Source of the DNA: Antedon mediterranea
Lineage: Eukaryota; Animalia; Echinodermata
Assembly (NCBI RefSeq): GCF_964355755.1
Contig: NC_092673.1
Coordinates: 19,217,648-19,281,647 of the forward strand
DNA: 64,000 nucleotides
Direction of reading: 5' to 3'
Under the pieces are notes generated by a model, which made no database searches, was not told the origin of the DNA, and worked only from the letters and a program-made list of their open reading frames with translations. The number at the start of each line of letters is the position of its first letter. Positions within the stretch are counted from its first letter, which is position 1. The position numbers and the translations under genes are program-made. Of the stretch, positions 9,523 to 57,940 are shown piece after piece.

Positions 9523-9685
9523 ACAGGCACATTTACATAGAGAGAAACGGAAGTATAATAATATTATAAAACTAGGCCTAGGCTAGCAGTTTTTGATTTT
9601 CCAACAACGGCAACCGTAACCAAGGAACCGCACAGGCTAATAACGATTCCGAGCGCCCTGAACGTACAGAGAGCGAAGCGCGGTA

Positions 9686-17504: not shown

Positions 17505-17770
17505 TTAACAGTGTCTTTCCTTGTGATCTATTGTTTTTGTTGGGAAATTTCCCGAATAGCGTACTGTCTGTCCGTCTGCTGCTGCGTTTGTTGACTGAGT
17601 ACGAGATTTTGTGACTTTCTTATGCACATACCAGATACAGCTACCACCAACAGTTACTAATAATCCAATACCATTGCGAATTCTTGCTGCTAAGCCGTCA
17701 TATATAATAATTAAGATGACAAAGGTTGCGAATAGAATAAACCAAATTACAGTAACTATCCACCAGTGAA
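17505..17770 (-). CDS. Candidate terminal exon encoding one strong and one weaker transmembrane segment; possible alternative 3' exon of the ROCO gene
   Basis: Acceptor ttttgattacag, phase 1: (V)HWWIVTVIWFILFATFVILIIIYDGLAARIRNGIGLLVTVGGSCIWYVHKK...HC*. The phase matches the DED exon donor. The link to the gene is inferred. Confidence 0.4.
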
Positions 17771-31700: not shown

Positions 31701-34700
31701 ACATACAGCAGCTCTTATTCTTAAACTTACCACTCTCTGGCTTAAGAAGTTTTGTTTTCTGTTTGTCACTTGTCGGTTTCTGAAATTGCTCATCAACAGT
31801 ACTTGGTAAATCTAAAAAAATGCACAAAACAAAAATATTACATATTATATATTTTCATAAAAAACACTATATTAAAAGTCATAGCTTTTTTTTTTCAATG
31901 GTATAAGGTTATATAAGGCTCTGTGTGATACAAAGCCTTACAAAAACTTGTGGGTGATTGTGTACAAGCAATCATTCATTCTGAATAATAATAATAACAA
32001 TGTATATTTTTAACTACAATGTATACAGTTAACAACTACAGTTATTAATTTAAATTATGTCCTAAAAAAAATTGTGGAACTCAAACTCATCCAAACATAT
32101 AGACGTTTGCAACATTTTTTGACAGCGATCCTGAATCTAAATCGTTGAAATTATAGCAATATACGGTTGATTAGCATGGTTTCAATGGGTAAAGTGCAAA
32201 TAAAGTAATCCTGAAATGAATAACTGGTATGATTCAGAATGAGGCAGTAGGAAATGCGATTAAAAACATCTATTGTAAGTTTTCAATATGCTTTGAACTT
32301 TTTGAATGTTTTTATTTATATTCTGTTTTATGACCAGAAATCAATTTTGTTTTTATACCTGTTTGTCAAAACACAATAAAGATAACTCGAGCCCAATCAT
32401 GGTTTAGGCTGATGTCAAACAATTTTGTCAATATAGACCTGGAATTGCACCTTTAAAGACTTACAATAAGGGCGCTTTTCTGGTCCTACTAAAACACGCT
32501 CAGAAAACGTGCCCACTGTCGCCAGTTGTTAGTTTCCCATTATGTGTATACGCTACACTTTTGTAAATATTAATTGTTAAAAAATAAAAAATTTAAACAT
32601 CAGCCTGGAATGTACAATGTGTCATACTTGCTTGCTTGCATAATTGATTAAAAACTCTAAATGTTTGTATAATATAAATATTTGTAAAACATACACTTTA
32701 TACACTTGGTAGAGCTTAGTTATACTTTGAAGGGCTTGGTGTTTAGAAGAACACCGCCCCTCCCCCCACAACCAATGTAATGAATATACAGTACAATTAG
32801 TTATTAGCAGTACAGCCAAGGAATATTTTAGCCTATTGAAGCAACGGTATATAATATAATATATATTATTATTTAGTTTCCAATTATTAGCGCATGTAAA
32901 AATAGGAAACCATTAACGCTCCTATTTGAATGTTCAATTGGAATACAACAAGGGTCACCCCTGCCATTATCTCTATTTAATATATTTATGAATTACTAGC
33001 TAAATCAAAATAACGAAAAAATACCATTCGGGGATTGCTTTATAAACCATCTGCTATATGCTGCTGATTTATTACTATTCGCAGACACAGTAAAGGTTTA
33101 CAAAATTTAATAATTATATTGGAAATATTTTGTGACACATGGGGTCTTAGTGTAAATGTAAACAAATAAAAAATAATGGTATTTAAAAAAGGTGAAAAAT
33201 TAAGAAAATATGAAAAATGGTACAGTATTACATAAACATTAAAATGGAAGTTGTTAAATCGTATACTTACTTGGAAGTGGTTTTCAATTCAAATGGTAAG
33301 TGGAATAACACAATTGAAAACAATTTTCAAAAAGCAAATAACGTACGTACTAACAATCAATTAATAGCAAAACAAAATACCTACCAGAGAATATATGGAA
33401 ACACATTTTTGACAAAGTTTTACCAATTTTAATTTACGGGAGTGAGACATGGGGCTTTTCGAATTTATCACCAATTGATCATTTACAGACACGTTTTTCA
33501 AGATTTATTTTAGGCATTGGAAACAGCGCACCCAGCGTGGCTGTTAGATCAGAATTAAGCAGACTACGCTTAAACATTGATTGCTTTATTTCTATTATTC
33601 GTTATTGGTTACAAATCACTGAAATGGATAAAAATAGATTTCCTTTTAAATGTTACACGTTTCAACTAAGAAAAACTAATAAAAATGAACATTGTTGGGC
33701 TAAACAAGTTAACGATTTGCTTTGTTCCACTGGCTATCTCTACATCTGGTACGATCAGGCTATATAAACTATATAATAATAAATAAACTGCGAGTACATT
33801 GTTTCTCTCATTTTATCATAAATTACCATAAAACGTACATCTAAGACAAGGAATAACCTGGTTTAATGTTTTTAAAGTAATATTCCATTATTTTTACAAA
33901 ACGTCGAAAATTGTAAGGAAAGGGTCTTTGAAATAGATTTTGAACTCTTACCTAATGGTTTAATCTTGTATGTATTGACTAAGAAAGTTCCTTAGACTAT
34001 AAAAGTTTGTTCACTTTGTCATACATTACTATCAGTTTTGGTTCTGTATTCTCAACCTTTTTTAGTAGGCCTACACCAAGCCAAGGATAAATATTTGCAA
34101 TTTAATTCGTTTATGCAATATTCAATAGATATTGAATAAATATTCTTCACACATATTAAAAATACATAAAATAATAATTATATAAACATGTAAGATAATA
34201 ATTAATAAAACATAGTATGTGTGGAAGGAAACCTTAAAAGTATAAAACTTTAAGCCTAGGTTGGGAAGAAAAAGAAACAAAATATGAATCCAATATTCTA
34301 TTATTCTGTGTGTAAGTACTCTACTGAAAGCTCATTAATTTATAACAACTTTTACAATTATTTAAGCGTTTATGCTCAAATATTACTTATTATTTTGTGC
34401 CTATTTGCATAAGAAGTTGCAAGATAATACAATTGTAGGAGCCAAGGTAAAATACATTATGTATGATGCTTAATTTTACATACAGAGAAATAGAATTCTT
34501 AAGCTGGCTTAAAGTATGTGAAGAAAATTCATTCATTGTGGAAACAAAAAATGGGATTAACAAGAAAATTAGATTTTTAGTCACGTGCAACGCCACTCTA
34601 CAACTCACTATGTCGGTCGGTTGGTAAACACTAACTTGAGCAAGCGACTGCAGACATCTATATGGCCTTGTTAAATTCAATATTTATCTCCTCCTATCGT

Positions 34701-37700
34701 AAATTGTTTGCCTCGATTGCGAATACATATTTTAAATAATACCATTATATATAAAATAGATTACATTTAAAAAAAAAATATTCTACATTTACATTTATAT
34801 GCAATTAATAAAGTTCAAATATTCCTTAACAATGCGCATCCCGTGTATTTGTCTATACAGGATTTTTATTAATTTTATTAATTTATTTTTTGTATGTTTT
34901 TTTTGTAACTAGCTTATAGTGGTCCTTTTATCACAAGTCCCTTTGGGTTTCTTGGAGGTCCTTTTCATCTTCACATCTTTAATTTGTTTATGTATAATTG
35001 TTTTGATGTATTGATGAATAAAGAGATTGATTTGATGTGAAAAATGACGTTCCATAAAAAAAAAGTGTGGCCAAATTTATTCAATATTGTTAATTCAAAG
35101 GAATTTTAAAGTTTGCATTTTTGTGTATTTTTATCGTAATGGCAAAATAATTTTTCTAATTTATTTGCAATTTTCAAATCATAAAAAATAAGGTTTTTAC
35201 ATCTTGCAACATATCACAACTTCCATGTTTACTACAATCCCAGTGGATTATTTAATCTATTGCCATCTGAACCTGTGAATGATATCATAAATGTTAATTT
35301 TCTTTATCTGGACAGTCTTCTTCATTTGGGACAAAAAATCAAATCTTTATCGTTTGTAATGAAAACTAGTTGATTCCAAAATTTTAATAATTAAAACTTC
35401 ACTTACTTTTAAAGAAGTTTAAAATTTCAGTTTTTCTCTGGTACCCTATCCACCTGTTACTTTCTAAAACAGAGACAGGTGTATTTCCATCCTATTAAAA
35501 AATGGGTGTAGTTACTTAGTAGTTTTTGAGAAATTATTGATATACAATATAACACACTTTAATACGCATCACATACATACAGTCATGGCTCAAACATTTA
35601 CCATCTAGAGATTGGATGAAAGAGCATCATGTGATAACACGTAGATTTACTATTTTTTAACATTGGTTGTAAATTAGGACGTGAATAGAAATTACTATTT
35701 GCCAATAAATGACATCAACTTGTACAGTGCGCCACCTATAACTCCTGTATCCAAACCAAAACTTAAGCGCTGCCGTTTATAGTCTACCGCCTTCAACATT
35801 GAGAGAGAGAGAGAGAGATAAATTGAATAAAAGTTTACTTTGGAACAGTAGGTAAATGTGTTAAAATGTTTGAGCCATAATATAAAACAACAAATAGTTT
35901 TACTATAAACTTTCAAAGAAAATAATATTTGGATACTATCCAGATACAAATGAAATATTAAAACAACAACAACACATTACAATTATAGTTGACTTATAAA
36001 TGAATATCTAAATCAAAACAAACTTGTTAGAATGTGCTATGTGTAAAAAGAGAAAAATGTGAAAAAAATCAAACACTTGAGAATTCTATATCTGTAAGTC
36101 TGATTAAATAATACTACTCTTTGAGGTAGTAATACTATTGATTAATATGGAGGCTAATTGATACTGAAGTTGAAGTTTATAAATACTGATAACAATAAAA
36201 TGTGAAATTGTCCTGACAATTCTTTGTAAGCCTACATTACCCTATTTTGCAATGCTGCAGATATACCATAATATGAGACAATACAGTAAAAATTACTGCT
36301 AAATAATGTGGTAAACCAGAACAAACTAGATTTGAACTCGTCACTTTGACGAGTTCGGGTTATCCGCGCAAACGCAACATGCACATATTTTAAACTATAT
36401 TATGAACTTCGACAATTATTATGCCATCCTATGACATGAATTAAGAATGTTTACAGTGCTGAATTGTACCTATTTTGTAGCATACAGCATATTACAGTGT
36501 TTACAGAATACACTGTATGTTATATACAGTGTAGAATAGACGAAATTACGAGACCCATCTTTTAAATCCAATTATTAACACGATGACGTCATCAAATTGG
36601 CATATAAAGATAACAATTTTAGAAGATAATTATCTAAATAATTACATTAATACAAATTTTAAGAATTTTGGGCACGTGAAAGTGAGATGCGCTCTCGTTT
36701 AAACGCAATGAACGTTTACGCAAGAGATGAAAATATGACTTTTTGAATTTAACTGGCCATATGATGACATCACAACATCTGATTGGCAAAATATTCACAT
36801 GAATTCGTATCTACAATCCAATATCTTCCAGAAAACGTTTTAATCATGATTATCACTTTTTATTCTGACGAGCTATAACCGATTGAAATTTACTGTAAAG
36901 ATAAAAATAAGTGACCCAAATTATTTATATTTTTAGACATGATGACGTCATAAAAATTAAAATATTTTTAACTCATGCGAAAGATAGTTGATTGACCTAG
37001 ACAGTATTAGAATATATGAGAAAATGGAATACGTATAAGCGATATGCGCTCTATTTAATGTAATGAGCAATAACGAAACAGTCAAAAATCCAATATTTTA
37101 CATTTGTGTGGCCATACGATGACGTCATAACATCTGAGGGGTAAAGATTGTGCATGAATTCATATCTACAACATATCTGCTTACATATTAAATTAAAAAA
37201 ATTGGGGGTAACGGTTGATCCTGAGGAGCTATAATAGATTAAAAATAGGCATAATTTTGACAATATGTTGTCACTTTTGCAACTAAAACGCGCGCAAATG
37301 GTGTAAATCAACGTGTTCGTATGACGTCATTTTAATTTGAAATGATGTCAATCTTTTTTAAAATGACTAAGAAAGGCTGTAAAATCATAATTCAAGAGAA
37401 AAACACATGATTTTCATGCTCCGTGCGCACCTTACGCGTAATTTTTTTTGCGCGCGTGGGAATTTTTTACATGCTTAAAATGTCATGATCAGCGTAGAAA
37501 GTTGATTAGAAATTAATTTTGCGCATTTTGAATTTTTAAATGCGCGTGCGCGCGTAACTTCTTGTAAAACATGCCATTTTTAATCCATAGAAAGTTTGCC
37601 CATGATATGACTTAAATTTTCACCAAGTGTCAAAACAAAATAACTTTTGGTTTATAATCTATGACCAATCATTGAAATTCATAAAATCGCGCGTAAGTCA

Positions 37701-40700
37701 CGTTGCGCAACTCTGACATCATTCAAAATATGGAGGTGCACAACTTCAGGTAAATGTCCATATGATGAAAAAGTTATATATATGATATAGTCACAAGCAA
37801 TAGGGGATATGCTGCGCACAAAAATCCGGGAAAGAAAGAAGAACTAGACATGAAACTCGTCACATTGACGAGTTAGTTATCCGCACCACGACAAACGCCA
37901 CGTGCACGTCATACGTTGGAATATTGCACACAGATAAAGATTATGGCATTATGACAAGAACTGAAGAATATGCTGAATTCTGTCAATTTTGTGTCATATA
38001 GTATATACATGCAAACAGTATAATCTGTATACATATTACATACAGTGTAGAATAGGTGAAATTACGGGACCCGCCATTTATTCCAATTTTTAACATGGCG
38101 ACGGTATCAAAATGAAACACTTGGATAGCAATTTCAGAAGGAAATTATCTCAGGAACAACATATTAACGTGTAGAAGAAATTTGAACACGTAAAATATAG
38201 ATGCGTACCCTTTTAAATGTGATGAACTATTACGCAAAATATGAAAATACGTCTTTTTTTATTCAACTGGCCATATGATGACGTCACAACATCCGATTGG
38301 CAAAATGTTTACATGAATTCGTATCTACAATCCAATAGCTTCCAGAAAACGTTTTAATCGTGATTATCACATTTTATTCTGATGAGCTATAACAGATTAA
38401 AATTTACTGTAAAGATAAATATAAGTGACCCACGTTATTTACATTTTTAGACATGATGACGTCCTAAAAATTAAAAAAAATTTTACTCATGTGTAAAATA
38501 GTTGATTGACCTAGAAAATGTCAAAATCTGGGTTAAAATGGAATACGTATAAGTGGAGAGGGGCTCTATTAAATGAGATGCGCTATGACGAAAGATACAA
38601 AAATCCTATATTTTACATTCGTGTGGCCATACGATGACGTCATAACTTCCGAGAGGTAACAATTCTGCATGAATTTATATCTACAATTTATCTTCTTACA
38701 TAATAAGTTAAAACAAATTGGGGTCACCTTTGATCCTGACGAGCTATAATAGATTCAAAATAGGCATAATTTTGACAATATTTTGTCACTTTTGCAACTA
38801 AAACGCATGCAAATGGTCTAAATCAACGTGTACGTATGACGTCATTTTAACTTGAAATGATGTCAATCTTGTTTAAAATGACTACGAAAGGCTGGACACT
38901 CAAAATTCAAGAAAAAAAACATGGTTTTCATACTCCGTGCGCCCCTTACGCGTAAATTTTTTCGCGCGCGTGGGAATTTTTGACATGCTCAAAATGTCAT
39001 GATCAGCGTAGAAAGTTGATTAGAAATTAATTTTGCGCATTTTGAAATTTTAAATGCGCGTGCGCGCGTAACTTCTTGTAAAACATGCCATTTTTAATCC
39101 ATAGAAAATTTGCACTTGATATGACTTAAATTTTCACAAATTGTCAAAACAAAATTACGTTTGGTTTTTAATCTATGGTCAATCATAAAAAATCATAAAA
39201 TCGCGCGTAAGTCACGTTGCGCAACTCTGACGTCATTCAAAAATAGGAGGTGCACAACTTCACGTATATGCCCATATGTTGACAAAGTTATGAAATGTTA
39301 TGTTTACAAGTTTTTGAGATACGTGAGACACAAAAATGGGGGAGAAAGAAATAAGAAACTAGACATGAAACTCGTCACTTTGACGAGTTAGTTATCCGCT
39401 CGACAAACGCCACGTGCACGTCATACGTTAGAATATTGCACACAGAAAAATATTAAGGCATTATGACCTGAACTGAAGAATATGATATGTTGTTATTTCT
39501 GAATTCTGTTATTTTGTGTCATATAGTATACACAGTACAATCTGTATACATATCACAAACAGTGTAAAATAGGTGAAATTACGGGACCCGTATTTTATTG
39601 TAATTTTTAACATCTTGACGGTTTCAAAATGAAATGCAAAAGTAGAAATTTCTGAATGAAATTATCTCAGCAACAACATATTAACGTATAGAAGAAATTT
39701 TAATACGTGAAATATTGATGCACGCTCTTTTAAATGTAATGAAATATAATGCAAAAGATGAAAATACGACTTTTTTTATTTAACTGGCCATATGATGACG
39801 TCACAACATTCGATTGCCACAATTTACACATGATTTTGTATCTACAATAAAATAGCTTCCTGAAAACGTTTTAATCGTGATTATCACATTTTATTCTTAC
39901 GAGGTATAACAGATTAAAATTTAATGTAAAGATAAAATTAATGACCAACGTAATTTAAATTTTTAGGCATGATGACGTTAAAAAAATTAAAAAAATTTTA
40001 ATTCATGCAAAAGATAGTTGATTGACCTAGAATATATTAAAATCGGGGTGAAAATAGACAACGAATAAGTGGAGATGCGCTCTATTAAATGTGATGAGCT
40101 ATGACGAAAGAGACAAAAATCCTATATTTTATATTGGCGTGGCCATACGATGACGTCACAATGTCCGGTTAGCCATATTAATGCATGATCCGATATTTAC
40201 AACTCATCAACTTCCAGAATATGTAATTAAAAAAAAGTTCTCCATGTAGTTTAGAATCTATGACTGTTTAAAAATAGGCATAATTTTGACGAATTTTTGA
40301 ACTTTTTCACCAAAAACGCGTGCAAATTATCTAATTCGACGTGCTCGTATGACGTAATTTTAAGTCGAAATTGTTTAAAATTTGGTAACATTACTAGAAA
40401 AGGCTGAAAAAACATAAATCACGCGAAAAAAATATGTTTTTAACGCTACGTGTGCACCGCGTGCGTAAAAATTTTCGCGCGCGTGGGAATTTTTGACATG
40501 CTCAAAATGACATGAAACGCATAGAAAGTTGATTAGAAGTTGATCTTTCGTATTCTAAAATTTTAAACGCGCGTGCGCGCGTAACTTTTTGTGAAACATG
40601 CTATTTTTAATCCATAGAAAGTTTGCGCTTGATATGACTTAAATTTGCACAAAGTGTCAAAACAAAATTATGTTTCGTTTTTAGTCTATGATCAATCATT

Positions 40701-43700
40701 GAAATTCATAAAATCGCGCGTAAGTCACGTTGCGCAACTCTGACGTCATTCAAAAATAGGAGGTGCACAAGTTCACGTAAATGTCGTTATGTTGACAAAG
40801 TTACGATATGTTCTGTTTACACGTTTTAGAGAAACGCGACGCACAAAAATGACAGAAGGAAAGAAGAATAATACAGAAAAAAAAAAAAAATATGATGAAA
40901 CAGGACGATTACAAGGAGTTATCCGCTACTAAGCGGATAACTAAAAAAAAAAGTAACAGGACGATTACAAGGAGTTATCCGCTGCTATGCGGATAACTAA
41001 CTAGACATGAAACTCGTCACTTTGACGAGTTAGTTATCCGCACGACAAACGCCACGTGCACGTCATACGTTGGAATATTGCACACGGAAAAAGATTATGG
41101 CATTGTGACCTGAACTGAAGAATATGATATGTTTTTATTGCTGAATTCTGTTATTTTGTGTCATATAGTATACACAGTACAATCTGTATACATATCACAT
41201 ACAGTGTAGAATAGGTGAAATTACGGGACCCGCTATTTATTCAAATTTTTAACATATTGACGGTTTCAAAATGAAACGCGAATGTAGCAATTTCGGAAGG
41301 AAATTATCTCAGCAACAACATATTAACGTGTGGAAGAAATTTGAACACGTGAAATATTGATGCGCGCTCTTTTAAATGTAATGAACTATGACGCAAAAGA
41401 TGAAAATACGACTTTTTTTATTTAACTGGCCATATGATGACGTCACAACATCCGATTGGCAAAATGTTTACATGATTTCGTATCTACAATCCAATAGCTT
41501 CCAGAAAACATTTTAATCGTGATTATCCCATTTTGTTCTTACGAGCGATAACAGATTAAAATTTACTGTAAAGATGAAATTAATGACCCAAGTAATTAAC
41601 ATTTTTAGGCATGATGACGTTACAAATATTAAAATATTTTTAACTCATGCGAAAGGTAGTTGATTGACCTAGACAATATTAAAATCTCGGAGAAAATGGA
41701 ATACGGATAAGCGTGATGCGCTCCATTGAATGTGATGAGCAATAACGAAAGAGACAAAAATCCTATATTTTATATTCGTGTGGCCATACGATGACGTCAA
41801 AATGTCCTGTTAGCCATATTAATGTATGATTTGATATCTACAACTCATCAACTTCCAGAATATGTAATAAAAATAACTTTCACCGTTTAGTTTAGAAACT
41901 ACGACTGTTTAAAAAAAGGCATAATTTTGACGATTTTTTTAGATTTTTGATCAAAAACGCGCGTAAATTTTTCAATTCGACGTGCTCGTATGACGTAATT
42001 TAAAGTCACAAATGGTTTTAAAATGGCAAAATTACTCTAGAAGGCTGGAAAAACATAATTCATGAGAAAAAAAGATGTTTTTCATGGTACGTGGCCACCG
42101 CGCGCGTAAAAAAATGCGTGCACGTGGGAATTTTTGACATGCGCGAAATGTCATGAGTCGTGTAAAAAGTTGATTAAAAATTAATTTTACGCATTTTGAA
42201 ACTTTAAATGCGCGTGCGCGCGTAACTTCTTGTAAAACATGCCATTTTTAATCAATAAAAAGTTTGCACTTGATATGACTTAAATTTTCACAAAGTGTCA
42301 AAACTAAATTATGCTTGGTTTTTAGTCTATGAGCAATCATAAAAAATCATAAAATCGCACGTAAGTCACGTTGCGCAACTCTGACGTCATTCAAAAATAG
42401 GAGGTGCACAACTTCACGTAAATGCCCATATGTTGACAAAGTTATGAAATGTTATGTTTACCCAATTTAGAGATACGCTCTGCACAAAAAGTGAGGGAGA
42501 AAGACAGAAGAATAATACTAGACATGTAACTCGTCACTTTGACGAGTTAGTTATCCGCACGACAAACGCCACGTGCACGTCATACGTTAGAATATTGCAC
42601 AGAGAAAAAATTATGGCATTATGACTTGATCTGAAGAATATGATATGTTGTTAGTGCTGAATTCTGTCAATTTTGTGTCATATAGTATATACATGCAAAC
42701 AGTATAATCTGTATACATGTTACATACAGTGTAGAATAGGTGAAATCACGGGACCCGCCATTTATTCAAATTTGTAACATGGCGACGGTATCAAGATGAA
42801 ACACTAAGATAGCAATTTCGGAAGCAAATTATCTCAGCAACAACATATTAACGTGTAGAAGAAATTTGAATACGTTTAATATTGATGCGTGCTCTTTTAA
42901 ATATAATGAACTATGATGCAAAAGATGAAAATACGACTTTTTTTATTTAACTTGCAATATGATGACGTCACAGCATCTGATTGGCAAAATGTTCACATGA
43001 TTTCATATCTACAATCCAAGAGCTTCCAGAAAATGTTTTAATCGTGATTATCACATTTTATTTTGACGGGCTATTACAGATTAAAATTTACTGTAAAGAT
43101 GAAATTAATGACCCACGTAATTAAAATTTTTAGGCATGATGACGTCATAAAAATTAAAATATTTTTATCTCATGCGAAAGATAGTTGATTGACCTAGACA
43201 ATATTAAAATCTCGGAGAAAAAGAAATACGTATAAGCGTGATGCGCTCCATTGAATGTGATGAGCAATAACGAAAGACAAAAAAATTCTATATTTTACAT
43301 TCGTGTGGCCATATGATGACGTCACAACATCCGTGAGGTAAAAATTCTGCATGAATTCATATCTACAACATATCTGCTTACATATTAAGTTAAAAAAATT
43401 AGGGGTAATCGTTGATCCTGAGAAGCTATAAAACATTCAAAATAGGCATAATTTTGACAACATTTTGTAACTTTTTCAACTAAAACGCGCGCAAATGGGC
43501 TAAATCAACGTGTTCGTATGACGTAATTTTAATTTGAAATGATGTCAATCTTTTTGAAAATGACTAGGAAAGGCTGGAAAATCACAATTCAAGAGAAAAA
43601 AACATGATTTTCATGCTCTATACGCACCGTGCGCGTAATATTTTTCGCGCGCGCGGTAATTTTGTACATGCTTAAAATGACATGAAACGCGTAGAAAGTT

Positions 43701-46700
43701 GATTAGAAATTATTTTTGCGCATTTTGAAATTTTAAATGCGCGTGCGCGCGTAACTTTGTGTAAAACACGCAATTTTTTTCAAACAGAAAGTTAGCGCAT
43801 GATATAAATTAAACTTTCACAAAGTGTCAATTAAAAATCACTTTTAGTTTTTAATCTATGATCAATCATAAAAAATCATAAAATCGCGCGTAAGTCACGT
43901 TGCGCAACTCTGACGTAATTCAAAAATAGGAGGTGCACAACTTCACGTAAATGCCCACATGTTGTCAAAGTTATAAAATGTTATGTTTACACATTTTAGA
44001 GAAACGCTCTACACAAAAATAGCGAGAAAGAAAGAAGAACTAGACATGAAACTCGTCACTTTGACGAGTTAGTTATCCGCACAACGACAAACGCCACGTG
44101 TACGTCATACGTTTGAATATTGCACACAGATAAAGATTATGGCATTATGACAAGAACTGAAGAATATGATAGGCTGTTAGTGCTGAATTCTGTCAATTTT
44201 GTGTCATATAGTATACATGCAAACAGTATAATCTGTATACATATTACATACAGTGTAGAATACTGTAGGTGAAATTACTAGACCCGCCATTTATTAAAAT
44301 TTTTAACATGGCGACGGTATCAAAATGGAACACTTAGATAGCAGTTTCGGAAGGAAATTATCTCGGTAACAACATATTAACGTGTAGAAGAAATTTGAAT
44401 ACGTAAAATATAGATGCGCGCCCTTTTAAATGTGATGAACTATTACGTAAAATATGAAAATACGACTTTTTTTATTCAACTGGCCATATGATGACGTCAG
44501 AACATCCGATTGGCAAAATGTTTACATGAATTCGTATCTACAATCCAATAGCTTTCAGAAAACGTTGTAATCATGATTATCACTTTTTATTCTGAGGATA
44601 TAACACATTGAAATTTACTGTAAAGATGAAAATATGTGACCCACGTTATTTACATTTTTAGACATGATGTCGTTAGAAAAATTAAAATATATTTAACTCA
44701 AGCGAAAGATAGTTGATTGACGGAGACAATATTAAAATCTCGGGGGAAATGGAATACGTATAAGCGAGATGCGCTCTGTTGAATGTGATGAGCAATAACG
44801 AAAGAGACAAAAATCCTATATTTTACATTCGTGTGGCCATACGATGACGTCACAATGTCCGGTTAGCCATATTGATTCATGATCCGATATCTACAACTCA
44901 TCAACTTCCAGAATATGTAATTAAAAAAAAGTTTACCTCGTAGTTTAGAATTTATGACTGTTTAAAAAAAGGCATAATTTTGACAAATTGTTGAACTTTT
45001 TCATTAAAAAGGCGTGCAAATTGAACAATTCGACGTGCTCGTATGACGTAATTTTAAGTAGAAATTGTATAAAAATTGGTCAAATTACTATAAAAGGCTT
45101 ATAAAACATAATTCACGCCAAAAAAAGATGTTTTAGCGCTACGTTCGCCACCGCGCGCGTAAAAATTTGCGCACACATGGGAATTTTTTACATGCGCAAA
45201 ATGTCATGAATCGCGTAAAAAGTTGATTAGAAATTATTTTTGCGCAATTTGAAATTTTAAATACGCGTGCGCGCGTAACTTCTTGTAAAACGTGCCATTT
45301 TTAATCCACAAAAAGTTTGCCTCTGATATGACTTAAATTTTCACAAAGTGTCAAAACAAAATTATGCTTGGTTTTTAGTCTATGATCAATCATAAAAAAT
45401 CATAAAATCGCGCGTAAGTCATGTTGCGCAACTCTGACGTCATTCAAAAATAGGAGGTGCACAACTTCACGTAAATGCCCATATGTTGACAAAGTTATGA
45501 AATGTTATGTTTACAAGTTTTTGAGATACGTTCTGCACAAAAATGGGGGAGAAAGAAAGAAGCAGAAAAAGATCCAGGACGATTACAAGGAGTTATCCGC
45601 TCAATGCGGATAACTAATAATACAGAAAAAAATATTGATCCCATACAATAACAAGGAGTTATCCGCCAAGTGCGGATAACTAACTAGACATGTAACTCGT
45701 CACTTTGACGAGTTAGTTATCCGCACGACAAAGGCCACGTGCACGTCATACGTTAGAATATTGCACACAGAAAAAGATTATGGCAATATGACCTGAACTG
45801 AAGAATATGATATGTTGTTATTGCTGAATTCTGTTATTTTTTGTCATATAGTATACAATATAATCTGTATACATATATTACATACAGTGTAGAATAGGTG
45901 AAATGACTGGACCCGCCATTTATTCCAATTTTTAACATGGCGACGGTATCAAAATGAAACACTAAGATAGCAATTTCGGAAGGAAATTATCTCGGCAACA
46001 ACATATTAATGTGTAGAAGAAATTTAAATACGTAAAATATTGATGCGCGCTCTTTTAAATGTAATAAATTATGACGCAAAAGATGAAAATACGACTTTTT
46101 TTATTTAACTAGTCATATGATGACATCACAACATCCGATTGGCAAAATTTTCACATGATTTCCTATCTACAATCCAATAGCTACTAGAAAACGTTTTAAT
46201 CGTGATTATCACATTTTATTCTTACGAGCTATAACAGATTAAAATTTACTGTAAAGATGAAATTAATGCCACACGTAATTTAAATTTTTAGGCATGATGA
46301 CGTCATAAAAATTAAAATATTTTTAACTCATGCGAAAGATAGTTGATTGACCTAGACAATATAAAAATCGGGGTGAAAATGGAAAACGGCTAAGTTGAGA
46401 TGCGCTCTATTAAATGTGATGACCTATAACGAAAGATACAAAAATCCTTTATTTTATATTTGCGTGGCCATACGATGACGTCATAATGTCCGGTTAGCCA
46501 TATTAATACATGATCCGATATATACAACTAATCAACTTCCAGAATATGTTATCCACAAAAAGTTGACGGTGCAGTTTAGAAATTACGACTGTTTAAAAAA
46601 AGGCATAATTTTGACAAATTTTTGAACTTTTTCATTAAAAAAGCGCACAAATTGTTCAATTCGACGTGCTCATATGACGTGATTTTAAGTCGAAATTGTT

Positions 46701-49700
46701 TAAAAGTTGATAAAATTACTAAAAAAAGCTATAAAAACATAAATCACGAGAAAAAAATATGTTTTCAACGCTACATGCGCACCGCGCACGTAAAAATTTG
46801 CGGGCGCGTGGGAATTTTTGACATGCTTAAAATTACATGAAACGCGTAGAAAGTTGATTAGAAATTAATTTTGCGCATTTTGAAATTTTAAATGCGCGTG
46901 CGCGCGTAACTTTGTGTGAAACATGCCATTTTTAATCCACAGAAAATTGACTCTTGATATAAATTAAATTTTCACCAAGTCTCAATACAAATCGACTTTT
47001 GGTTTTTAATCTATGATCAATCATTTAAATTCATAAAATTGCGTGCAAGTCACGTTGCGCAACTCTGACGTTTTTCAAAAATAGGAGGTGCACAACTTCA
47101 CGTAAATGTCTATATTTTGACAAAGTTACGATATGTTCTGTTTACACATTTTAGAGAAACAGGGCTCACAAAAAAAGGAAGAAAGACAGAAGAATAATAC
47201 AGAAAAGGAAAAAGATCCCATACAATAACAAGGAGTTATCCGCCAAGTGCGGATAACTAATAAAATTGAAACAGGACGATTACAAGGAGTTATCCGCTAC
47301 TAAGCGGATAACTAATAAAGATGAAAAAAAAAAAGATTTTTACAATAACAAGGGTTATCCGCAACTTCTAAGTTGCGGATAACCAAATAGAATAGAATGT
47401 TAGCCTATTACACTAGCAAATCCCTGTACATTTACCTTATTTTGCAATGCTACTGGTGTCCCATGCTGAAAGAGACAAGTCACTATTTCTAAGGTAGGTG
47501 CAGTATATCCAATCCCCAGATATGAATGTAATGGAGTGTCACCATACTGGAAAGGAATCGTAATGAAGTTTATAAATACTGACAACAGACATTATGTGAA
47601 ATTGTTTGTTTTTTGGTAAATACAAACAACAACAATTACTGCTAAATATTGTGGTAAATAATCATAATTATTATTATTAATAAATGAGTAGAACAAAATA
47701 GAATGGTTTACCACAGCATATCTATAGAATGTTAGCCTATTACACTAGCAAATCCCTGTACAATACCTTATTTTGCAATGCTACTGGTGCCCCATGCTGA
47801 ATGAGACAAGTCACTATTTCTAAGGTAGGTTTAAATCCACTCCCCAGATATGAATGTAATGGAGTGTCACCATCCTGGAAAGGAATCATAATAAAGTTTA
47901 TAAATACTGACAACAGACATTATGTGAAATTGTTTGTTTTTTGTCAATACAAACAACAACAATTGCTACTAAATATTGTGGTAAATAATCATAATTATCA
48001 TTATTAATAAATGAGTAGAACAAAATAGAATGGTTTACCACAGCATATCTATACAATGTTAGCCTATTACACTAGCAAATCCCTGTACATTACCTTATTT
48101 TGCAATGCTACTGGTGCCCCATGCTGAATGAGACAAGTCACTATTTCCAAGGTAGGTCTATATCCTCTCCTCAGATATAAATGTAATGGAGTGTCACCAT
48201 TCTGGAAAGGAATCATAATGAAGTTTATAAATACTGACAACAGACATTATGTGAAATTGTTTGTTTTTTTTGTCAATACAAACAACAACAATTGCTACTA
48301 AATATTGTGGTAAATAATCATAATTATCATTATTAATAAATGAGTAGAACAAAATAGAATGGTTTACCACAGCATATCTATAGAATGTTAGCCTATTACA
48401 CTAGCAAATCCCTGTACATTTACCTTATTTTCCAATGCTACTGGTGCCCCATGCTGAATGAGACAAGTCACTATTTCTAAGGTAGGTGTATATACACTCC
48501 ACAGATAGTAATGTAATAGAGTTTTATCATCCTGGAAAGGAATCATAATCAAGTTTATAAATACTGACAACAGACATTATGTGAAATTGTTTGTTTTTTG
48601 TTAATACAAACAACAACAATTGCTGCTAAATATTGTGGTAAATAATCATAATTATCATTACACGTCACTATTTCTAAGGTAGGTTGTGTATATTCAATCC
48701 TCAGATATGAATGTAATGGAGTGTTACCATCCTGGAAAGGAAAGCATTTTTTTGTAAGGTAAGAGAGGGAGCAGGTTATTAATTAATAATTATTTGTTAT
48801 TAAAATCAGATTCTATTAATTTTTTGTAACATAAACCTTTTTTATTTGTTATTTTATTATTAATCAATGTAGTCCCATTTTATTTCATCTTTACAATTAA
48901 TTAGACCATTGTCAATCATTGTTATCTTTACAGCTACATATGACCAATTTATATTTGTTTTACGGTCAAAAATATTTAAACAAAATTATACTGATTCACC
49001 TGTATAAAAAATTACAAGTAGATTGTTTTTGTTCATTAAGAAAAAAGATAAATGTTATATGATGGATAACTGTATACTTTAAATCAGTTATCATAAATCA
49101 TATATAACTGTTTAGTTATTATTTTAATTTGGTTTCTTTTAATAAAATTTGATTTTTGTTAATGGGCTTACTTTAGCCTATTACTTAATGTAAGTTATTA
49201 TTCATGTACACTGCCTTATTTTGCCATGTTACTGAACTACGCTGTGTGAGACATGTTACTATTTCTAAGGTAGGTACTGAATACATATACAAATATGCAT
49301 GTAATGGAGTGTCACCATCTTTCTTTCGCAATGTTGCTGGTGTATAATATTGACAACAGACATTATGTGAAAATGGGGTTTTTTTGTCAACCCAAACCAT
49401 AGCAAGAATTACTGCTAAATAATGTGGTCAATAATAATAATAATGAGAACAAAATAGAATATGGTAGAGAAAGTTGGTACATCCTTTCAGTACTGATTTT
49501 TAACACCCAATGAAACCAATATCATAATTAAGTTAAGTTAGATATTAACGATAACAAATTTAATTTAAACCATTTGCCTTGATGAAAATCATATCATATC
49601 ATGAAGCCCGATACCATCCCATCATCAAATGTACCAAGACAGGAATTTGGTGAACAATACCATGTAATAAACAAAATTAAGGTAATTCTCAGGATGACAA

Positions 49701-52700
49701 TTATATTTGACTACATAAATTCCAACATATCTGTATTTATTTGCTTTGTGTACAGTGCGACTTAGACAATTTTCAGTTATTTACTGAAGTTTATTTATTC
49801 GAGAACCATCTGTGGGCACTTAATTACCAGTATATCAAATTTTAACTGGCAACTTTAATAGAATCATTTTTTCCAAAAAGTCATAAGATAAGATACGGCA
49901 CTGTTTGAAAAGAATAATTTCATATTAAATTTCTTTTTGAAATTGCATTGCTCAAACATTTTTACTAAACTAAACATTTTTCTTCCTTTTGTGCAAAATG
50001 TTTGTTTGGAAAAGGATCTCTTTTAAGCCCATATTCATACTGTATGTGATAAGACTGACAGAAGTATTTTGTTGTAAAGTACTGTAAGTAAAGGGCGGGA
50101 GCAGGTTATTAACAATTAATAATCCTTTTTTATTGAAATCAGATTCTATTTTTAACATAAACCTTTTTTAATTTGTTATTTTATTAATAGTCAATGTAGC
50201 ATGTCCCATTTTATTTCGTATTTACAATTAATTAGACCATTGTCAATCGTTATCTAGTTAAAGTACATACAGTAATAATGAGCAATTTATATTTGTTTTA
50301 AGGTCATAAAAATGTTAACAACATTGTAAGGACGTTGGACTGCTGATCGTGAGATCGAGTTTCGAATCCAACTCTCGCTGCATTGCTTGTATCCTTAGGC
50401 AAGATACTTTACTTACGTTTGCCTCTCTCCATCCAGGTGTATAATTGGGAACCCGCTTAGATCAAGACACAACTTTGCGCTTATTACTAGCTGCGTTATG
50501 GGAGAATGTTTCCATAGGTGTTTGATCAGGAAAATGTTCAGCGCTTAGAGGTTTAACAACATTAGGCGCTATATAAATCCAGGATATTATTATTATTGTA
50601 GGTTACTATTATGAAGATTTTTCATTGAGAAAATTAAAGATTTATGTTATTTGATAGGTAACTGTACACTTTAAATCAGTTCATAAATCATATTAACTAT
50701 TTAGTTTTTTATTTGGTTTATTGTAAGTCTTTACTTTTTCTCTAATTGTAACATTTTTCACAATATCATATTTTGTATGCTTCATTTAGATTCTGCTAAG
50801 CTTTGATTTATTTATATTATTATTTTTAGCCTAATGTGGTTAATCAGTGCATGCAGGTTATACCCCCATCATCAGTGTGTATTTATATTATTATTTTTAG
50901 CCTAATGTGGTTAATCAGTGCATGCAGGTTATACCTCCATCATCAGTTTGTATTTATATTATTATTTTTAGCCTAATGTGGTTAATCAGTGCATGCAGGT
51001 TATACCTCCATCATCAGTGTGTATTTATATTATTATTTTTAGCCTAATGTGGTTAATCAGTGCATGCAGGTTATACCTCCATCATCAGTGTGTATTTATA
51101 TTATTATTTTTAGCCTAATATTGTTAATCAGTACATGCAGATTATACCTCCATCATCAGTGTGTATTTATATTATTATTTTTAGCCTAATGTGGTTAATC
51201 AGTACATGCAGGTTATACCTCCATCATCAGTGTGTATTTATATTATTATTTTTAGCCTAATGTGGTTAATCAGTGCATGCAGGTTATACCCCCATCATCA
51301 GTGTGTATTTATATTATTATTTTTAGCCTAATGTGGTTAATCAGTGCATGCAGGTTATAGCTCCATCATCAGTGTGTATTTATATTATTATTTTTAGCCT
51401 AATGTTGTTAATCAGTACATGCAGATTATACCCCCATCATCAGTGTGTATTTATATTATTATTTTTAGCCTAATGTGGTTAATCAGTACATGCAGATTAT
51501 ACCCCCATCATCAGTGTGTATTTATATTATTATTTTTAGCCTAATGTGGTTAATCAGTGCATGCAGGTTATACCTCCATCATCAGTGTGTATTTATATTA
51601 TTATTTTTTAGCCTAATGTTGTTAATCAGTACATGCAGATTATACCCCTATCATCAGTGTGTATTTATATTATTATTTTTAGCCTAATGAGGTTAATCAG
51701 TGCATGCAGGTTATACCCCCATCATTAGTGTGTATTTATATTATTATTTTTAGCCTAATGTGGTTAATCAGTACATGCAGGTATATACCTCCATCATCAG
51801 TGTGTATTTATATTATTATTTTTAGCCTAATGTGGTTAATCAGTACATGCAGGTTATACAGTAGCCCCATCATCAGTGTGTATTTGTATATTATTATTTT
51901 TAGCATAATGTTGTTAATCAGTGCATGCAGGTTATACCTCCATCATCAGTGTGTATTTATATTATTATTTTTAGCCTAATGTTGTTAATCAGTACATGCA
52001 GGTTATACCCCCATCATCAGTGTGTATTTGTATATTATTATTTTTAGCCTAATGTTGTTAATCAGTACATGCAGGTTATACCTCCATCATCAGTGTGTAT
52101 TTGTATATTATTATTTTTAGCCTAATGTTGTTAATCAGTACATGCAGGTTATCCCCATCATCAGTGTGTATTTATATTATTATTTTTAGCCTAATGTTGT
52201 TAATCAGTACATGCAGGTTATACCTCCATCATCAGTGTGTATTTGTATATTATTATTTTTAGCCTAATGTTGTTAATCAGTACATGCAGGTTATACCTCC
52301 ATCATCAGTGTGTATTTATATTATTATTTTTAGCCTAATGTGGTTAATCAGTACATGCAGGTTATACCCCCATCATCCGTGTGTATTTATATTATTATTT
52401 TTAGCCTAATGTTGTTAATCAGTACATGCAGGTTATACCTCCATCATCAGTGTGTATTATAATATTATTTTTAGCCTAATGTTGTTAATCAGTACATGCA
52501 GGTTATACCTCCATCATCAGTGTGTATTTATATTATTATTTTTAGCCTAATGTGGTTAATCAGTACATGCAGGTTATACCTCCATCATCAGTGTGTATTT
52601 ATATTATTATTTTTAGCCTAATGTGGTTAATCAGTGCATGCAGGTTATACCTCCATCATCAGTGTGTATTTATATTATTATTTTTAGCCTAATGTGGTTA

Positions 52701-55700: not shown

Positions 55701-56816
55701 ATTATTATTTTTAGCCTAATGTGGTTAATCAGTACATGCATGTTATACCTCCATCATCAGTGTGTATTTATATTATTATTTATAGCCTAATGTGGTTAAT
55801 CAGTACGTGCAGGTTATACCTCCATCATCAGTGTGTATTTATATTATTATTTTTAGCCTAATGTTGTTAATCAGTACATGCAGGTTATAGCTCCATCATC
55901 AGTATGTATTTATATTATTATTTTTAGCCTAATGTGGTTAATCAGTGCATGCAGGTTATACCTCCATCATCAGTGTGTATTTATATTATTATTTTTAGCC
56001 TAATGTGGTTAATCAGTGCATGCAGGTTATACCGCCATCATCAGTGTGTATTTATATTATTATTTTTAGCCTAATGTGGTTAATCAGTGCATGCAGGTTA
56101 TACCACCATCATCAGTGTGTATTTATATTATTATTTTTAGCCTAATGTGGTTAATCAGTACATAGAGGTAAGCTTCCATCATCAGTGTGATAATGCAAAA
56201 GAATTGTAATTCATTAAGTAAAAAAGCTTTAAACTATTAAATAAAATTACATCCTCTATAATTTTAAACTTTAATGAAAAGAATTTCTTCTTTGATAATA
56301 TTATAAAAATATATCTGTTTTTATACCTCATTGATAGATTTCAGAAGACCTGGTTGCGTCTTACAGATTTGTTTAATTGTTTTCAAATCATTCCTTGACA
56401 AAGCTTCTACCAAATGTTTCCTGTCAAAATGTAAGAAATAATCCATTTTTACCCATGTATTTAATGAGAATGATGATTGATGGAAATACTGTATTATTAT
56501 TATATTTAATGAGAATAAGTCCTTTAATTGTAATATTTATGATTTCATAATTTTTAAAGAAAGAAAGAAATAATTTTGGATTTTATAATCTCTTAAGAAA
56601 GTTTGAAGTATTTTTCTCAAAAGAATATCTTAAAATCAAAGTGTTTTCTTTTTGTTTGAACTATAAATTCTGATTATAAAGTATGTTATATGTATGTCAA
56701 TATAACTATTCAAACATTTTAATTTGTTTTTAATTGTTACATATTTCAATAATATCAACACATATTGGAGCTGGTTATTTTTGTTTGAAATAATTGTTAA
56801 AAACGTACCTTTCCAT
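19737..56816 (-). CDS. Multi-exon ROCO-family gene: ankyrin repeats - Roc GTPase - COR - tandem DED (about 1170-1320 aa)
   Basis: Exons in transcript order, all phases compatible: 56816-56809, 56420-56327, ANK 48531-48424, 48201-48094, 47874-47767, 47546-47436, then 35491-35407, 31811-31731, 30663-30516, 30108-30023, 29681-29623, 29199-29127, 28909-28851, 28534-28414, 26905-26748, 26298-26209, 26015-25842, 25607-25356, 24841-24647, 24399-24205, 23965-23663, 23566-23495, 22967-22751, 22243-22205, 21681-21142, (20368-19910), 19768-19737. GT-AG boundaries and no internal stop in the reconstruction. The first and last exons are least certain. Confidence 0.85.
19910..20368 (-). repeat. 18-bp coding-type tandem repeat; candidate phase 1-1 exon encoding (SSGAGV)n
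   Basis: 459 nt between aataag| and G|gtgatt keeps frame between the DED exon and the last exon. The acceptor is weak (AAG, poor pyrimidine tract). Confidence 0.55.
21142..21681 (-). CDS. ROCO gene exon: tandem death-effector-like domains
   Basis: 540-nt phase 1-1 exon. FWQLLTD...DLLHDLTASGSLSPSNLTLL and FRQNIYQLGEELNEDEVSKL...LIMDFEHKGII both follow the DED pattern. Confidence 0.75.
22751..25607 (-). CDS. ROCO gene exons: end of Roc (G5, FAVEN) and COR domain
   Basis: YFAVENS, VPLKW, LLNFLYDLGEIVY, VLDPMQL, LMIQLGFI, FFVPLRL, and a C-terminal CDVC...H...C motif. Confidence 0.85.
25842..30663 (-). CDS. ROCO gene exons: Roc small-GTPase domain with a long acidic insert
   Basis: P-loop GQEGVGKT, switch I TDGI, G3 IWDHGGQ..YH..H..F, YIVVFDL, G4 IVGTHKG. 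Confidence 0.88.
27028..28095. repeat. 43-bp intronic minisatellite (~24 copies)
   Basis: Unit acacctagtcgttatcatcattgcartcttcattatcawtgtt; period 43 (27061, 27104). Confidence 0.95.
28380..29690 (-). repeat. Tandem duplication of a two-exon block, with introns, inside Roc
   Basis: GDPSKQYTKMVTDKLR vs GNPSKQYTKMVTDKLR and IDMKPPTDD... both occur twice. Introns 28555-28850 and 29357-29622 align. Confidence 0.9.
29030..29097 (+). mobile_element. Helitron 3'-terminal fragment
   Basis: Hairpin ctagaggg...gcgagcgaagcgag...ccctCTAG followed by T. Shares cgagaaccatc with the Helitron at 52820. The 5' end is not located. Confidence 0.6.
32890..33770 (+). pseudogene. Decayed non-LTR retrotransposon (LINE) reverse-transcriptase fragment
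   Basis: Frameshifted GIQQGSPL..LFNIFM, LLYA(A)D, WGLSVN..K, YTYL, YGSETWG and AVRSELSR motifs. Confidence 0.8.
34574..34672 (+). mobile_element. Very short Helentron-associated (DINE-1-like) remnant
   Basis: ttttagtcacgtgcaacgccact degenerate 5' hairpin, gtcggtcggttgg microsatellite, 3' gcgact...ggccttgtt. Confidence 0.45.
36241..36283 (-). pseudogene. Degenerate ankyrin-exon remnant (3' half)
   Basis: Minus strand tgtctcata..tatggtatatctgcagcattgcaaaatagg|gtaatg resembles CLI.HG..VALQNK plus donor. Flanked by the cassette intron motif attactgctaaataatgtggtaaa. Confidence 0.6.
36325..47384 (-). mobile_element. Nest of seven ~1.5-kb non-autonomous Helentron/Helitron-type (HINE, DINE-1-like) elements
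   Basis: Seven 3' ends at 36325, 37843, 39358, 41000, 42517, 44039 and 45683 (minus strand: subTIR gcggataac, hairpin aactcgtcaaagtgacgagtt, CTAG-T). Seven 5' subTIR hairpins gttatccgc-N-gcggataac at 40917, 40973, 45591, 45657, 47234, 47288 and 47353. No TSD; inserted in an A/T run; no long ORF. Confidence 0.82.
47436..49319 (-). CDS. Tandem array of single-ankyrin-repeat exon cassettes (4 intact, 1 truncated, 1 with defective splice sites)
   Basis: Phase 0-0 exons of 108-111 nt (xGDTPLHxYLxxxxxPTLEIVTCLIQHGAPVALQNK) with ttccag acceptors and gta donors, spaced ~327-331 bp. Truncated copy at 48664-48731; divergent copy at 49215-49319. Confidence 0.92.
50329..50598 (+). mobile_element. tRNA-derived CORE-type SINE with L2-like 3' tail, 5'-truncated
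   Basis: B-box-like gtttcgaatcc. tgtatccttaggcaagatactttac...ctctctccatccaggtgtata is CORE-like. Tail gcgcttagag...aggcgctatataaat...(tat)n. Absent from the paralogous intron segment near 48980. Confidence 0.75.
52820..53508 (-). mobile_element. Non-autonomous canonical Helitron (689 bp)
   Basis: Minus strand begins TCTATATA and ends in hairpin ctagatggtacg..gcgaagc..cgtaccatCTAG. Inserted between A and T with no TSD; removal restores an exact satellite unit. Confidence 0.9.
53813..55442. mobile_element. Non-autonomous PIF/Harbinger-like element
   Basis: TIRs GGGCCTGTTTCTGCTGCATA and TATGCAGCAGAAACAGACCC (19/20). 3-bp TSD AAT. Many subterminal AACCGGTT motifs. Confidence 0.85.
54348..54966. 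repeat. Long (~180-bp arms) imperfect inverted repeat inside the Harbinger-like element
   Basis: 54348-54530 is the approximate reverse complement of 54788-54966 (e.g. ctcagaatgttgcaa and ttgcaacattctgag). Confidence 0.85.
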
Positions 56817-56948: not shown

Positions 56949-57940
56949 AATGAATGAAAGATGACCAGTATGCTGGTGTTACTGCATGAAGATGACTCCT
57001 GTATACTGGTGTTACTGCATGAAGATGACTCCTGTATGCTGGTGTTACTGCATGAAGATGACCTGTATGCTGGCGTTACTGAATGAAGATGACATGTATG
57101 CTGGTGTTACTGAATGAAAGATGACCTGTATGCTGGTGTTACGTCTGCATGAAGATGACCTGTATGGTGATACTGAATGAAGATGACCTGTATGCTGGCG
57201 TTACTGAATGAAGATGACCTGTGTAAATGCTGGTGTTACTGAATGAAGTGAGATGTATGCTGGTGTTACTGCATGCAGATAACTCCTGTATGCTGGTGTT
57301 ACTGAATGAAGATGACCTGTATGCTGGTGTTACTGAATAAAGATGACTCCTGTATGCTGGTGTTACTGAATGAAAGATGACCTGTATGCTGGTGTTACGT
57401 CTGCATGAAGATGACCTGTATGGTGATACTGAATGAAGATGACCTGTATGCTGGCGTTACTGAATGAAGATTACCTGTATGCCTGCATATTACTGAATGA
57501 AGATGACCTGTATAAATGCTGGTGTTACTGAATGAAGAGATGTATGCTGGTGTTACTGCATGCAGATGACTCCTGTATGCTGGTGTTACTGAATGAAGAT
57601 GACCTGTATGCTGGTGTTACTGAATGAAGATGACCTGTATGCTGGTGTTACTGAATGAAGATGACCTGTATGCTGGTGTTACTGAATAAAGATGACCTGT
57701 ATGCTGGTGTTACTGATGAAGATGACCTGTATGCTGGCGTTACTGAATGAAGATGACCTGTATGCTGGTGTTACTACATGAAGATGACCTGTATGCTGGC
57801 GTTACTGAATGAAGACGACCTGTATGCTGGTGTTACTGCATGAAGATGACTTGTATGCTGGTGTTACTGAATGAAGATGACCTGTATGCTGGCGTTACTG
57901 AATGAAGATGACCTTGTATGCTGGTGTTACTACATGAAGA
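56949..57940. repeat. ~31-bp minisatellite
   Basis: Unit gaagatgacctgtatgctggtgttactgaat with small indel variants. Confidence 0.92.

Follow-up and report, generated by a model that had tools for sequence, protein, structure and literature searches.

The stretch of DNA analyzed in this study, referred to as the window, comprises 64,000 nt of the genome of the crinoid Antedon mediterranea (contig NC_092673.1, positions 19,217,648 to 19,281,647), and all coordinates below are positions within it. It contains a gene on the minus strand in which ankyrin repeats precede a ROC-COR core and a tandem death effector domain (DED). The ankyrin repeats are encoded by an array of exon cassettes on the same strand, named A to F in the order of transcription, and the variation among these cassettes is the main subject of this work.

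The cassette array and its variable patch

Tandem Repeats Finder identified a tandem array at 47392-48660 with a period of 327, 3.9 copies, and 94% matches. Six ankyrin exons span 47436-49319 on the minus strand, including four intact ones (C to F, with AG/GT ends and phase 0-0) and two broken ones (A and B). An earlier note on this DNA had described cassettes of ~330 bp that each hold one phase 0-0 exon, which agrees with the period and the four intact copies but not with A and B, while the six N-terminal halves that it quoted were all located at their places on the minus strand. The Pfam Ank family was found on all four intact exons, with two of them above the curated cut-off, and in cassette C the TPLH motif is altered to TLLH. 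Cassette A is probably non-functional. The 23 nt that precede it (49320-49342, minus strand) resemble the tail of an ankyrin exon (17 of 23 places match) and run straight into the exon without an intervening intron, a junction that resembles a spliced joint frozen in DNA and could reflect intron loss mediated by complementary DNA or a precise deletion. Cassette B continues after codon 24 into intron sequence and a stop, so that, lacking a donor, it must be skipped for the frame to remain open. A seventh copy, remnant G, lies beyond an 11-kb repeat insertion from the rest of the array. No inverted (opposite-strand) cassette was observed among the seven copies in the window, and tblastn found no ankyrin exon after the intron-like segment at 50083-50328.

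Among cassettes C to F, 14 of the 45 columns in codons 1-15 (the patch) are variable, compared to four of 63 in the rest of the exon and eight of 170 in the introns. A Fisher test separated the 5' half of the exon from the introns (p = 4.5e-6) but not the 3' half (p = 0.74); the earlier note had proposed this comparison of exon and intron diversity as a check, and the outcome is in line with its claim. Exons D and E differ by six nonsynonymous changes, all within the first 45 nt, and one synonymous change, while introns C-D and D-E differ by two substitutions and two indels in 219 sites, both as had been counted before. Intron E-F is more distant, with seven and eight substitutions relative to the other two. 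Across 13 repeats (six of the window and seven of A. mediterranea), the entropy reached about 2 bits at codons 8 and 11-14 and 1.8 bits at codon 1. The stretch after codon 10 ranges from four to nine residues across 15 repeats and is always in frame. Inside the patch, all six window copies agree at the framework codons 4, 6, 7, and 9, silent sites included.

Further variation was observed in public sequencing data. Eleven runs from five studies were found, of which four were compared with the array and two (X1 and X5) with cassette E; X1 is DNA-like and possibly derives from the window's own sample, and X5 is from another sample. With variant rows counted at a frequency of at least 8% and exon E as the reference, the two runs yielded 33 rows, which fell at 16 of 45 places in codons 1-15, seven of 63 in codons 16-36, and three of 218 in the introns (11/45, 6/63, and 3/218 for X1 alone). 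In codons 1-15, 20 of the 23 rows are nonsynonymous relative to exon E, and codons 2, 4, 6, 7, 9, and 10 had no variant row. One hypervariable base had the same alternative letter on 24 separate contigs of X1, suggesting many distinct cassettes in one sample. A dip in X1 depth over the patch was set aside, as short overlapping contigs inflate the depth elsewhere. At 47778-47903, X1 also revealed a genomic cassette type from which most of the exon is missing but whose tail and donor remain, akin to remnants A and G; such deletion cassettes seem to be recurrent in the family.

The ratio of nonsynonymous to synonymous rates (omega) was estimated with a star-tree codon model written for this analysis. 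For codons 1-15, omega was 8.4 (C-F), 4.5 (B-F), and 3.0 (A-F), while the remainder of the exon ranged from 0.5 to 0.9. For the six positions randomized in the designed ankyrin library ANK-N5C, the values were 9.2, 7.2, and 3.4 with four, five, and six copies, respectively (p = 0.0008-0.008 against 1). The fixation of framework codons 4, 6, 7, and 9 while codons 8 and 11-15 vary also favors selection, and the patch is likely under diversifying selection.

To locate the patch in the fold, an AlphaFold prediction for the relative P0005 (XP_071948736.1; pLDDT 88, from an alignment of 10 rows) was used; P0002, P0006, and P0007, named below or in Table 1, are XP_071948801.1, XP_071948802.1, and XP_071948771.1. 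In this model, helix 1 holds codons 5-12, and codons 13-16 belong to the loop that leads into helix 2; confidence is lower (pLDDT ~71) in the longest such loop. An ankyrin repeat of the TPLH type (helix-loop-helix-hairpin) is supported by the Pfam Ank matches and by the likeness of the P0005 model to designed ankyrin repeat proteins (DARPins), which Foldseek identified at TM ~0.76. According to the available text of its description, the ANK-N5C library varies positions 2, 3, 5, 10, 13, and 33 (PMC4308713). In the alignment to DARPin chains, positions 3, 5, 10, and 13 correspond to exon codons 1, 3, 8, and 11, all strongly variable, while positions 33 and 2 correspond to codons 34 (nearly fixed) and 36 (fixed). 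Additional variation falls in codons 12-16, at the end of helix 1 and in the helix1-helix2 loop. The earlier equation of the variable sites with the face randomized in DARPins hence applies to the hairpin and helix 1, with four of the six library positions variable, but not to codons 34 and 36, and the main novelty is a length-variable rim loop. On the model, the patch would lie on the ligand-binding face.

No run is on record as RNA, and X5 was guessed to be RNA. In X5, seven contigs leave the position of exon E at the donor and continue as an ankyrin-exon-like start, two exon-to-exon joints were listed, and four of the eight listed pieces end exactly at the donor. A similar loose end occurs at 48093 in the array-wide run comparison. 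No donor exits or exon joints were listed for X1, which instead has head-to-tail genomic cassettes, and none of the runs compared had a contig that spans the array; the contigs are short and come from a multi-copy family. As the X5 contigs join ankyrin exon to ankyrin exon, members of the family, as distinct from this locus, appear to be spliced.

Table 1. Positions of the cassettes, host-gene exons, and inserted repeats in the window.
Feature	Positions	Strand	Remarks
Cassette A	49215..49319	-	Diverged ankyrin exon; normal acceptor replaced by exon-tail-like 23-mer; GC donor
Cassette B	48660..48731	-	5' 24 codons only; acceptor intact, normal donor deleted
Cassette C exon	48424..48531	-	Intact, 108 nt, phase 0-0; Pfam Ank E=0.029
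Cassette D exon	48094..48201	-	Intact, 108 nt, phase 0-0; Pfam Ank E=1.7e-7
Cassette E exon	47767..47874	-	Intact, 108 nt, phase 0-0; Pfam Ank E=4.5e-5
Cassette F exon	47436..47546	-	Intact, 111 nt, phase 0-0; Pfam Ank E=0.013
Three homogenized introns, 219-222 nt	47547..48423 (exons D, E between)	-	Pairwise difference 0.9-3.7%
Remnant G (seventh copy)	~36241..36285	-	3' half of older ankyrin exon and donor; acceptor and 5' half deleted
Older copy (80%) of intron segment preceding cassette B	50083..50328	-	blastn
First coding exon (ATG, MER), predicted	56809..56816	-	GT donor and phase fit; P0005 begins with the same residues
N-cap exon, phase 2-0	56327..56420	-	33 of the first 34 aa shared with A. 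mediterranea P0005
C-cap exon, phase 0-1	35407..35491	-	71% to P0006
Linker and ROC exons	25842..31811	-	G1 GQEGVGKT, G3 WDHGGQ, G4 THKG
COR exons	22751..25607	-	Pfam COR-A E=4e-7 on one exon; 71-83% to 13 paralogues, model residues 451-900
Tandem death effector domain exon	21142..21681	-	Pfam DED E=2.5e-12, two stretches
Possible Ser/Gly-rich 18-bp-repeat exon, phase 1-1 (putative)	19910..20347	-	Weak likeness to P0013 linker
Putative terminal exon, hydrophobic segment(s)	17505..17770	-	90% over 72 aa to P0013 tail; hydropathy up to 3.1
Seven tandem non-coding elements, 1.5-1.7 kb, 76-88% alike	36326..47391	-	Short inverted repeats near both ends; hairpin and CTAG 3' end

The host gene and its relatives

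The reading frame of the gene comprises 25 exons joined by 24 GT-AG introns of compatible phases, with no stop in 1,162 codons through the DED exon. With exons joined by their coordinates, the order of modules is an N-cap (two helices in the P0005 model), four ankyrin repeats, a C-cap, a linker, ROC, COR, and the tandem DED. The Pfam scan covered 16 pieces, namely 15 exons and one unrelated open reading frame. Roc was matched weakly on two exons (E=0.01 and 0.07), and the Roc and COR-A matches fell below the cut-off because single exons are fragments; the caps and four ROC/COR exons had no relevant match. The ROC-COR core aligns with P0002, which has both the Roc and COR families, at 67% over 935 columns, and by its domain content the gene is a ROCO. 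The earlier identification of an ankyrin ROCO-DED gene in an animal was upheld; Ank, Roc, COR-A, and DED all fall on exons of one open frame. Within the ROC region, a two-exon unit of the acidic insert (28414-29681, minus strand) was tandemly duplicated together with its introns, the copies being ~82% alike, which is a second duplication of the cassette type within the same gene.

The G1 and G3 GTPase motifs are present in the ROC domain. The consensus of the G4 motif includes an Asp that specifies guanine, and this residue is absent from the gene and from all 13 paralogues of its clade as well as P0020 and P0021, which have THKG or THKA, while three of four Anneissia proteins retain THRD. Its absence across the Antedon clade suggests that nucleotide use may be atypical, and the nucleotide specificity of the group (window 25842-26015, minus strand; P0002, P0008-P0021) may have changed. 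Judged from these motifs, the missing Asp would lower the reading of a canonical GTP-specific enzyme and not that of ROC-COR homology.

Downstream of the DED, a putative terminal exon encodes one or more hydrophobic segments that are probably membrane-spanning, as predicted from hydropathy, and its phase-1 acceptor would fit the donor of either the DED or the Ser/Gly exon. The 18-bp repeat at 19907-20377 is open on both strands, Ser/Gly-rich on the minus and Pro/Glu/Asp-rich on the plus strand, and is probably an exon of the gene. A guessed 16-nt exon at 18617-18602 was dropped because it breaks the frame, and no exon matching the segment before the membrane tail of P0013 was found in the window. 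The seven non-coding elements, which we take to be helitron- or DINE-like from their ends, form the 11-kb array that separates cassette F from the C-cap and thereby splits the cassette array. No ankyrin match was found in any of the seven units, and cassettes travelling inside such an element were rejected for the window.

The named close matches were all from crinoids. All four matches of the DED search and all three of the ankyrin profile search were A. mediterranea proteins, while the ROC-COR search identified 15 A. mediterranea and four Anneissia japonica proteins. In the ROC-COR tree, the gene and 13 A. mediterranea paralogues group in one clade (100/98), and these paralogues are all reported with the same longest contig of 36.19 Mb. 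The best match changed from segment to segment: P0005 for the N-cap (97%), P0010/P0011 for the first ROC exons (100%), P0014 for the later and middle ROC (96%), others for COR (79-86%), P0002 for the DED (70%), and P0013 for the tail (90%), a pattern that fits exchange between paralogues. P0005 shares 33 of 34 N-cap residues with the gene and none of its variable segments.

The gene belongs with an uncharacterized cluster of A. mediterranea ROCO models (P0002, P0005-P0019), which have the same N-cap, ankyrin framework, linker, ROC-COR, DED, and tail at 70-100% identity. These database models are mostly fragments, and none of their nine ankyrin repeats has a variable segment identical to those of the window. 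In P0009-P0011, unrelated short N-termini precede the same linker exon, suggesting that their ankyrin exons were probably missed in annotation. Repeats 1 and 3 of P0005 are identical over the first 26 residues, and P0008 has two repeats between complete caps versus four here; together with the broken copies in the array, these agree with the cassette turnover that had been proposed. Within the single model P0008, the N-cap, two ankyrin repeats, and C-cap are followed by not one but two ROC-COR units, which differ in age. DEDs take the place of the ankyrins in P0002, and a kinase does so in P0020; the N-terminal modules are swapped on one core among P0002, P0008, and P0020. The DED of the gene is 66-69% identical to those of the A. 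mediterranea NACHT proteins P0001 and P0003. Beyond crinoids, a protein atlas gave only leads scoring under 0.9, consisting of Ank-Roc(-Death) clusters in arthropods, molluscs, and sponges. A search of 1.84 billion proteins returned 39 matches, of which 36 were new; among the eight new ones scanned (P0026-P0033), one had G1 and none had TPLH. A conserved exon 20-mer had no matches in metagenomes.

Interpretation of the variable cassettes

Taken as a whole, the cassettes are probably the variable ankyrin repeats of a clustered crinoid ROC-COR-DED family, likely an intracellular sensor of non-self, in which the patch is likely diversified by selection and the rest likely homogenized in the germline. 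Exon-plus-intron units would be duplicated, deleted, and converted in the germline via the near-identical introns, with unequal crossover and conversion homogenizing the rest of the unit. Recombination through the introns would add, remove, and swap whole repeats, the 0-0 phase preserving the frame, and selection rather than mutation would keep the binding patch different between copies. The ankyrin stack would serve as the sensor. On binding a ligand it would switch the ROC-COR unit, whereupon the tandem DED, as the effector, would recruit DED partners of the FADD/caspase-8 type at a membrane; these signalling steps follow general knowledge of ROCO and DED proteins.

Several points weigh against this reading. 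The omega estimates treat four to six recombining sequences as a star tree, for a patch initially picked out by eye. In the run comparison, loop indels can create false mismatch rows, and the exon 3' half, including three synonymous places, also exceeds the introns (p = 0.001-0.005), so that intron variation may not be a good measure of neutral change. With a median of only 13 letters, the splice overhangs stay below the 31-letter bar of the tool, and the X5 contigs, whose RNA status was guessed, are not assignable to this locus. If some RefSeq models of the cluster are fragments or chimeras, as may be the case, the gene would look more mosaic than it is. At the locus itself, cassette B keeps a good acceptor, cassette C has its altered motif, and G4 is without its Asp.

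An unlikely alternative requires no selection for diversity: the cassettes would be young duplicates homogenized by conversion, in which a hypermutable or conversion-resistant patch drifts under relaxed constraint. Taken alone, the 16 nonsynonymous and two synonymous changes of the window copies do not reach significance (p = 0.18). Fixing omega at 1 and raising the local rate 2.4-7.3-fold costs the model no more than 1.5-2.0 log-likelihood units. The claim of diversifying selection made earlier was partly sustained, with omega values of 3-9 on a star tree of four to six copies, but a higher local mutation rate was rejected only at p = 0.04-0.08 (omega > 1 with a free local rate: p = 0.082, 0.044, and 0.054 for four, five, and six copies). 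The helix1-helix2 loop, of lower confidence in the P0005 model, also tolerates insertions. However, leaving omega free brought the local rate down to 1.0-2.1, which does not differ significantly from 1 (p = 0.66-0.98). At the silent sites of the framework codons in the patch (5.7 sites), the six copies show a single change and the two runs no row, while neighboring codons vary. The patch is free of stops and frameshifts in all 15 repeats, though for the nine annotated ones this is partly built into the gene models.

Selection could also be real with a target other than pathogens, such as allorecognition, symbiont sorting, or conflict with the animal's own mobile elements, which we regard as improbable. 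Non-self recognition is the function described, in the available part of the source, for fungal NLRs whose repeats are conserved (PMC4986451). The locus is rich in mobile elements. On the other hand, the DED is common to NACHT proteins of the same genus, and the expansion of a cluster with module swapping is generally typical of immune receptor families.

It is doubtful that, in a family that is real and diversified, this particular copy is decaying or a mere donor of cassettes: three of the seven cassettes are broken, the 11-kb insertion splits the array, and cassettes B and C carry a live acceptor without a donor and a damaged motif, respectively, and no contig is assignable to the locus, yet canonical sites and the open frame persist in all 25 exons up to and including the DED, and the loss of the G4 Asp, being common to all 13 clade paralogues, is not decay of this copy.

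Going beyond the preferred reading of a germline-diversified sensor, there is a slim chance that the family amounts to a DARPin library made by nature. Its clustered ROCO-DED genes, a dozen or more, would draw on dozens of interchangeable cassettes with a length-variable loop like the complementarity-determining regions of antibodies. The conserved introns would be the substrate for exchange, so that an individual animal, or even a single cell by means of splicing or somatic recombination, could put together intracellular receptors of its own.

Known systems and other features of the window

One ankyrin repeat per exon is a common arrangement in animals. A literature search, with subscription journals mostly outside its reach and supplements excluded, found neither an animal ankyrin-ROCO with hypervariable cassettes nor this crinoid cluster, and the available text of PMC10236652 and PMC12373286 contains nothing on ankyrin or ROC cassettes. 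The closest parallels, compared here through the available portions of each source, were the leucine-rich repeat (LRR) ROCOs of Ectocarpus and the ankyrin NLRs of fungi. By analogy, the gene would work like both, and it is a member of neither.

The Ectocarpus LRR-ROCOs (type I LRR exons; PMC3341825, PMC11378527) have the same ROC-COR core, one repeat per symmetric exon, inactivated repeat exons in the sensor region (here A, B, and G), a multigene family, and a candidate immune role. Diversifying selection is described there, compared to an omega of 3-9 here with p < 0.01 under a shared silent rate and p = 0.04-0.08 under a free local rate. In contrast, the crinoid gene has ankyrin instead of LRR repeats, an animal host, a C-terminal tandem DED with a probable membrane tail, four repeats between caps rather than ~10, no inverted cassettes in the window, and near-identical introns of ~220 nt carried with each exon (PMC3341825, PMC11378527).

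In fungal ankyrin NLRs, such as Podospora Pa_3_8560, the repeats are likewise highly conserved internally; positive selection there falls on the face that comprises the inner helix and the hairpin, and repeat number is polymorphic (PMC4986451). Their switch is NACHT/NB-ARC rather than ROC-COR and their repeats are C-terminal; the word intron is absent from the available text of that source, and differences in repeat number are known here only between paralogues. Besides these, DAPK1 and other animal ROCO expansions have the same layout of repeats, ROC-COR, and a death fold, including at least 17 genes in Trichoplax (PMC4104024) and the ROCO-TIR proteins of Aplysia (PMC9334734), and hypervariable exon cassettes are not reported in the available parts of these two accounts. 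A DAPK1 orthologue was ruled out, as the gene starts at the N-cap without an N-terminal kinase and has a DED instead of the C-terminal Death domain.

Designed libraries (DARPin, PMC8683736; ANK-N5C, PMC4308713), as far as the available text describes them, are likewise built from an N-cap, internal repeats that are nearly identical except for variable residues at the surface, and a C-cap. The crinoid repeats differ in being natural, 35-40 residues long, and variable in the length of the helix1-helix2 loop, which is left unrandomized in ANK-N5C, while two ANK-N5C library positions are almost fixed in the crinoid repeats, one of them at the splice donor.

The cluster is a candidate family of highly variable receptors in a deuterostome invertebrate that is apparently undescribed and poorly annotated. 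It uses a ROC-COR switch rather than NACHT, yet has a DED in common with the animal's NACHT proteins. It would represent a third arrival at homogenized repeats with a hypervariable face, after the brown-algal LRR-ROCOs and the fungal ankyrin NLRs, and with an array as short as ~1 kb, germline and somatic variation are directly testable by long reads.

The remainder of the window includes mobile and repetitive sequences. A 637-codon open reading frame at 1213-3126 (plus strand) encodes a MULE transposase with a SWIM finger (Pfam E=8e-8). At 9662-13672 (plus strand), a long terminal repeat retrotransposon has gag-like and pol-like open reading frames in one frame with a single stop between them; protease, reverse transcriptase, and integrase motifs were recognized by eye, and 62-bp minisatellites flank the element. 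Long minisatellites also occur in or near the introns of the gene, at 27024-28095 (43 bp), 50809-56189 (71 bp), 56951-57941 (31 bp), and 60589-63424 (89 bp).

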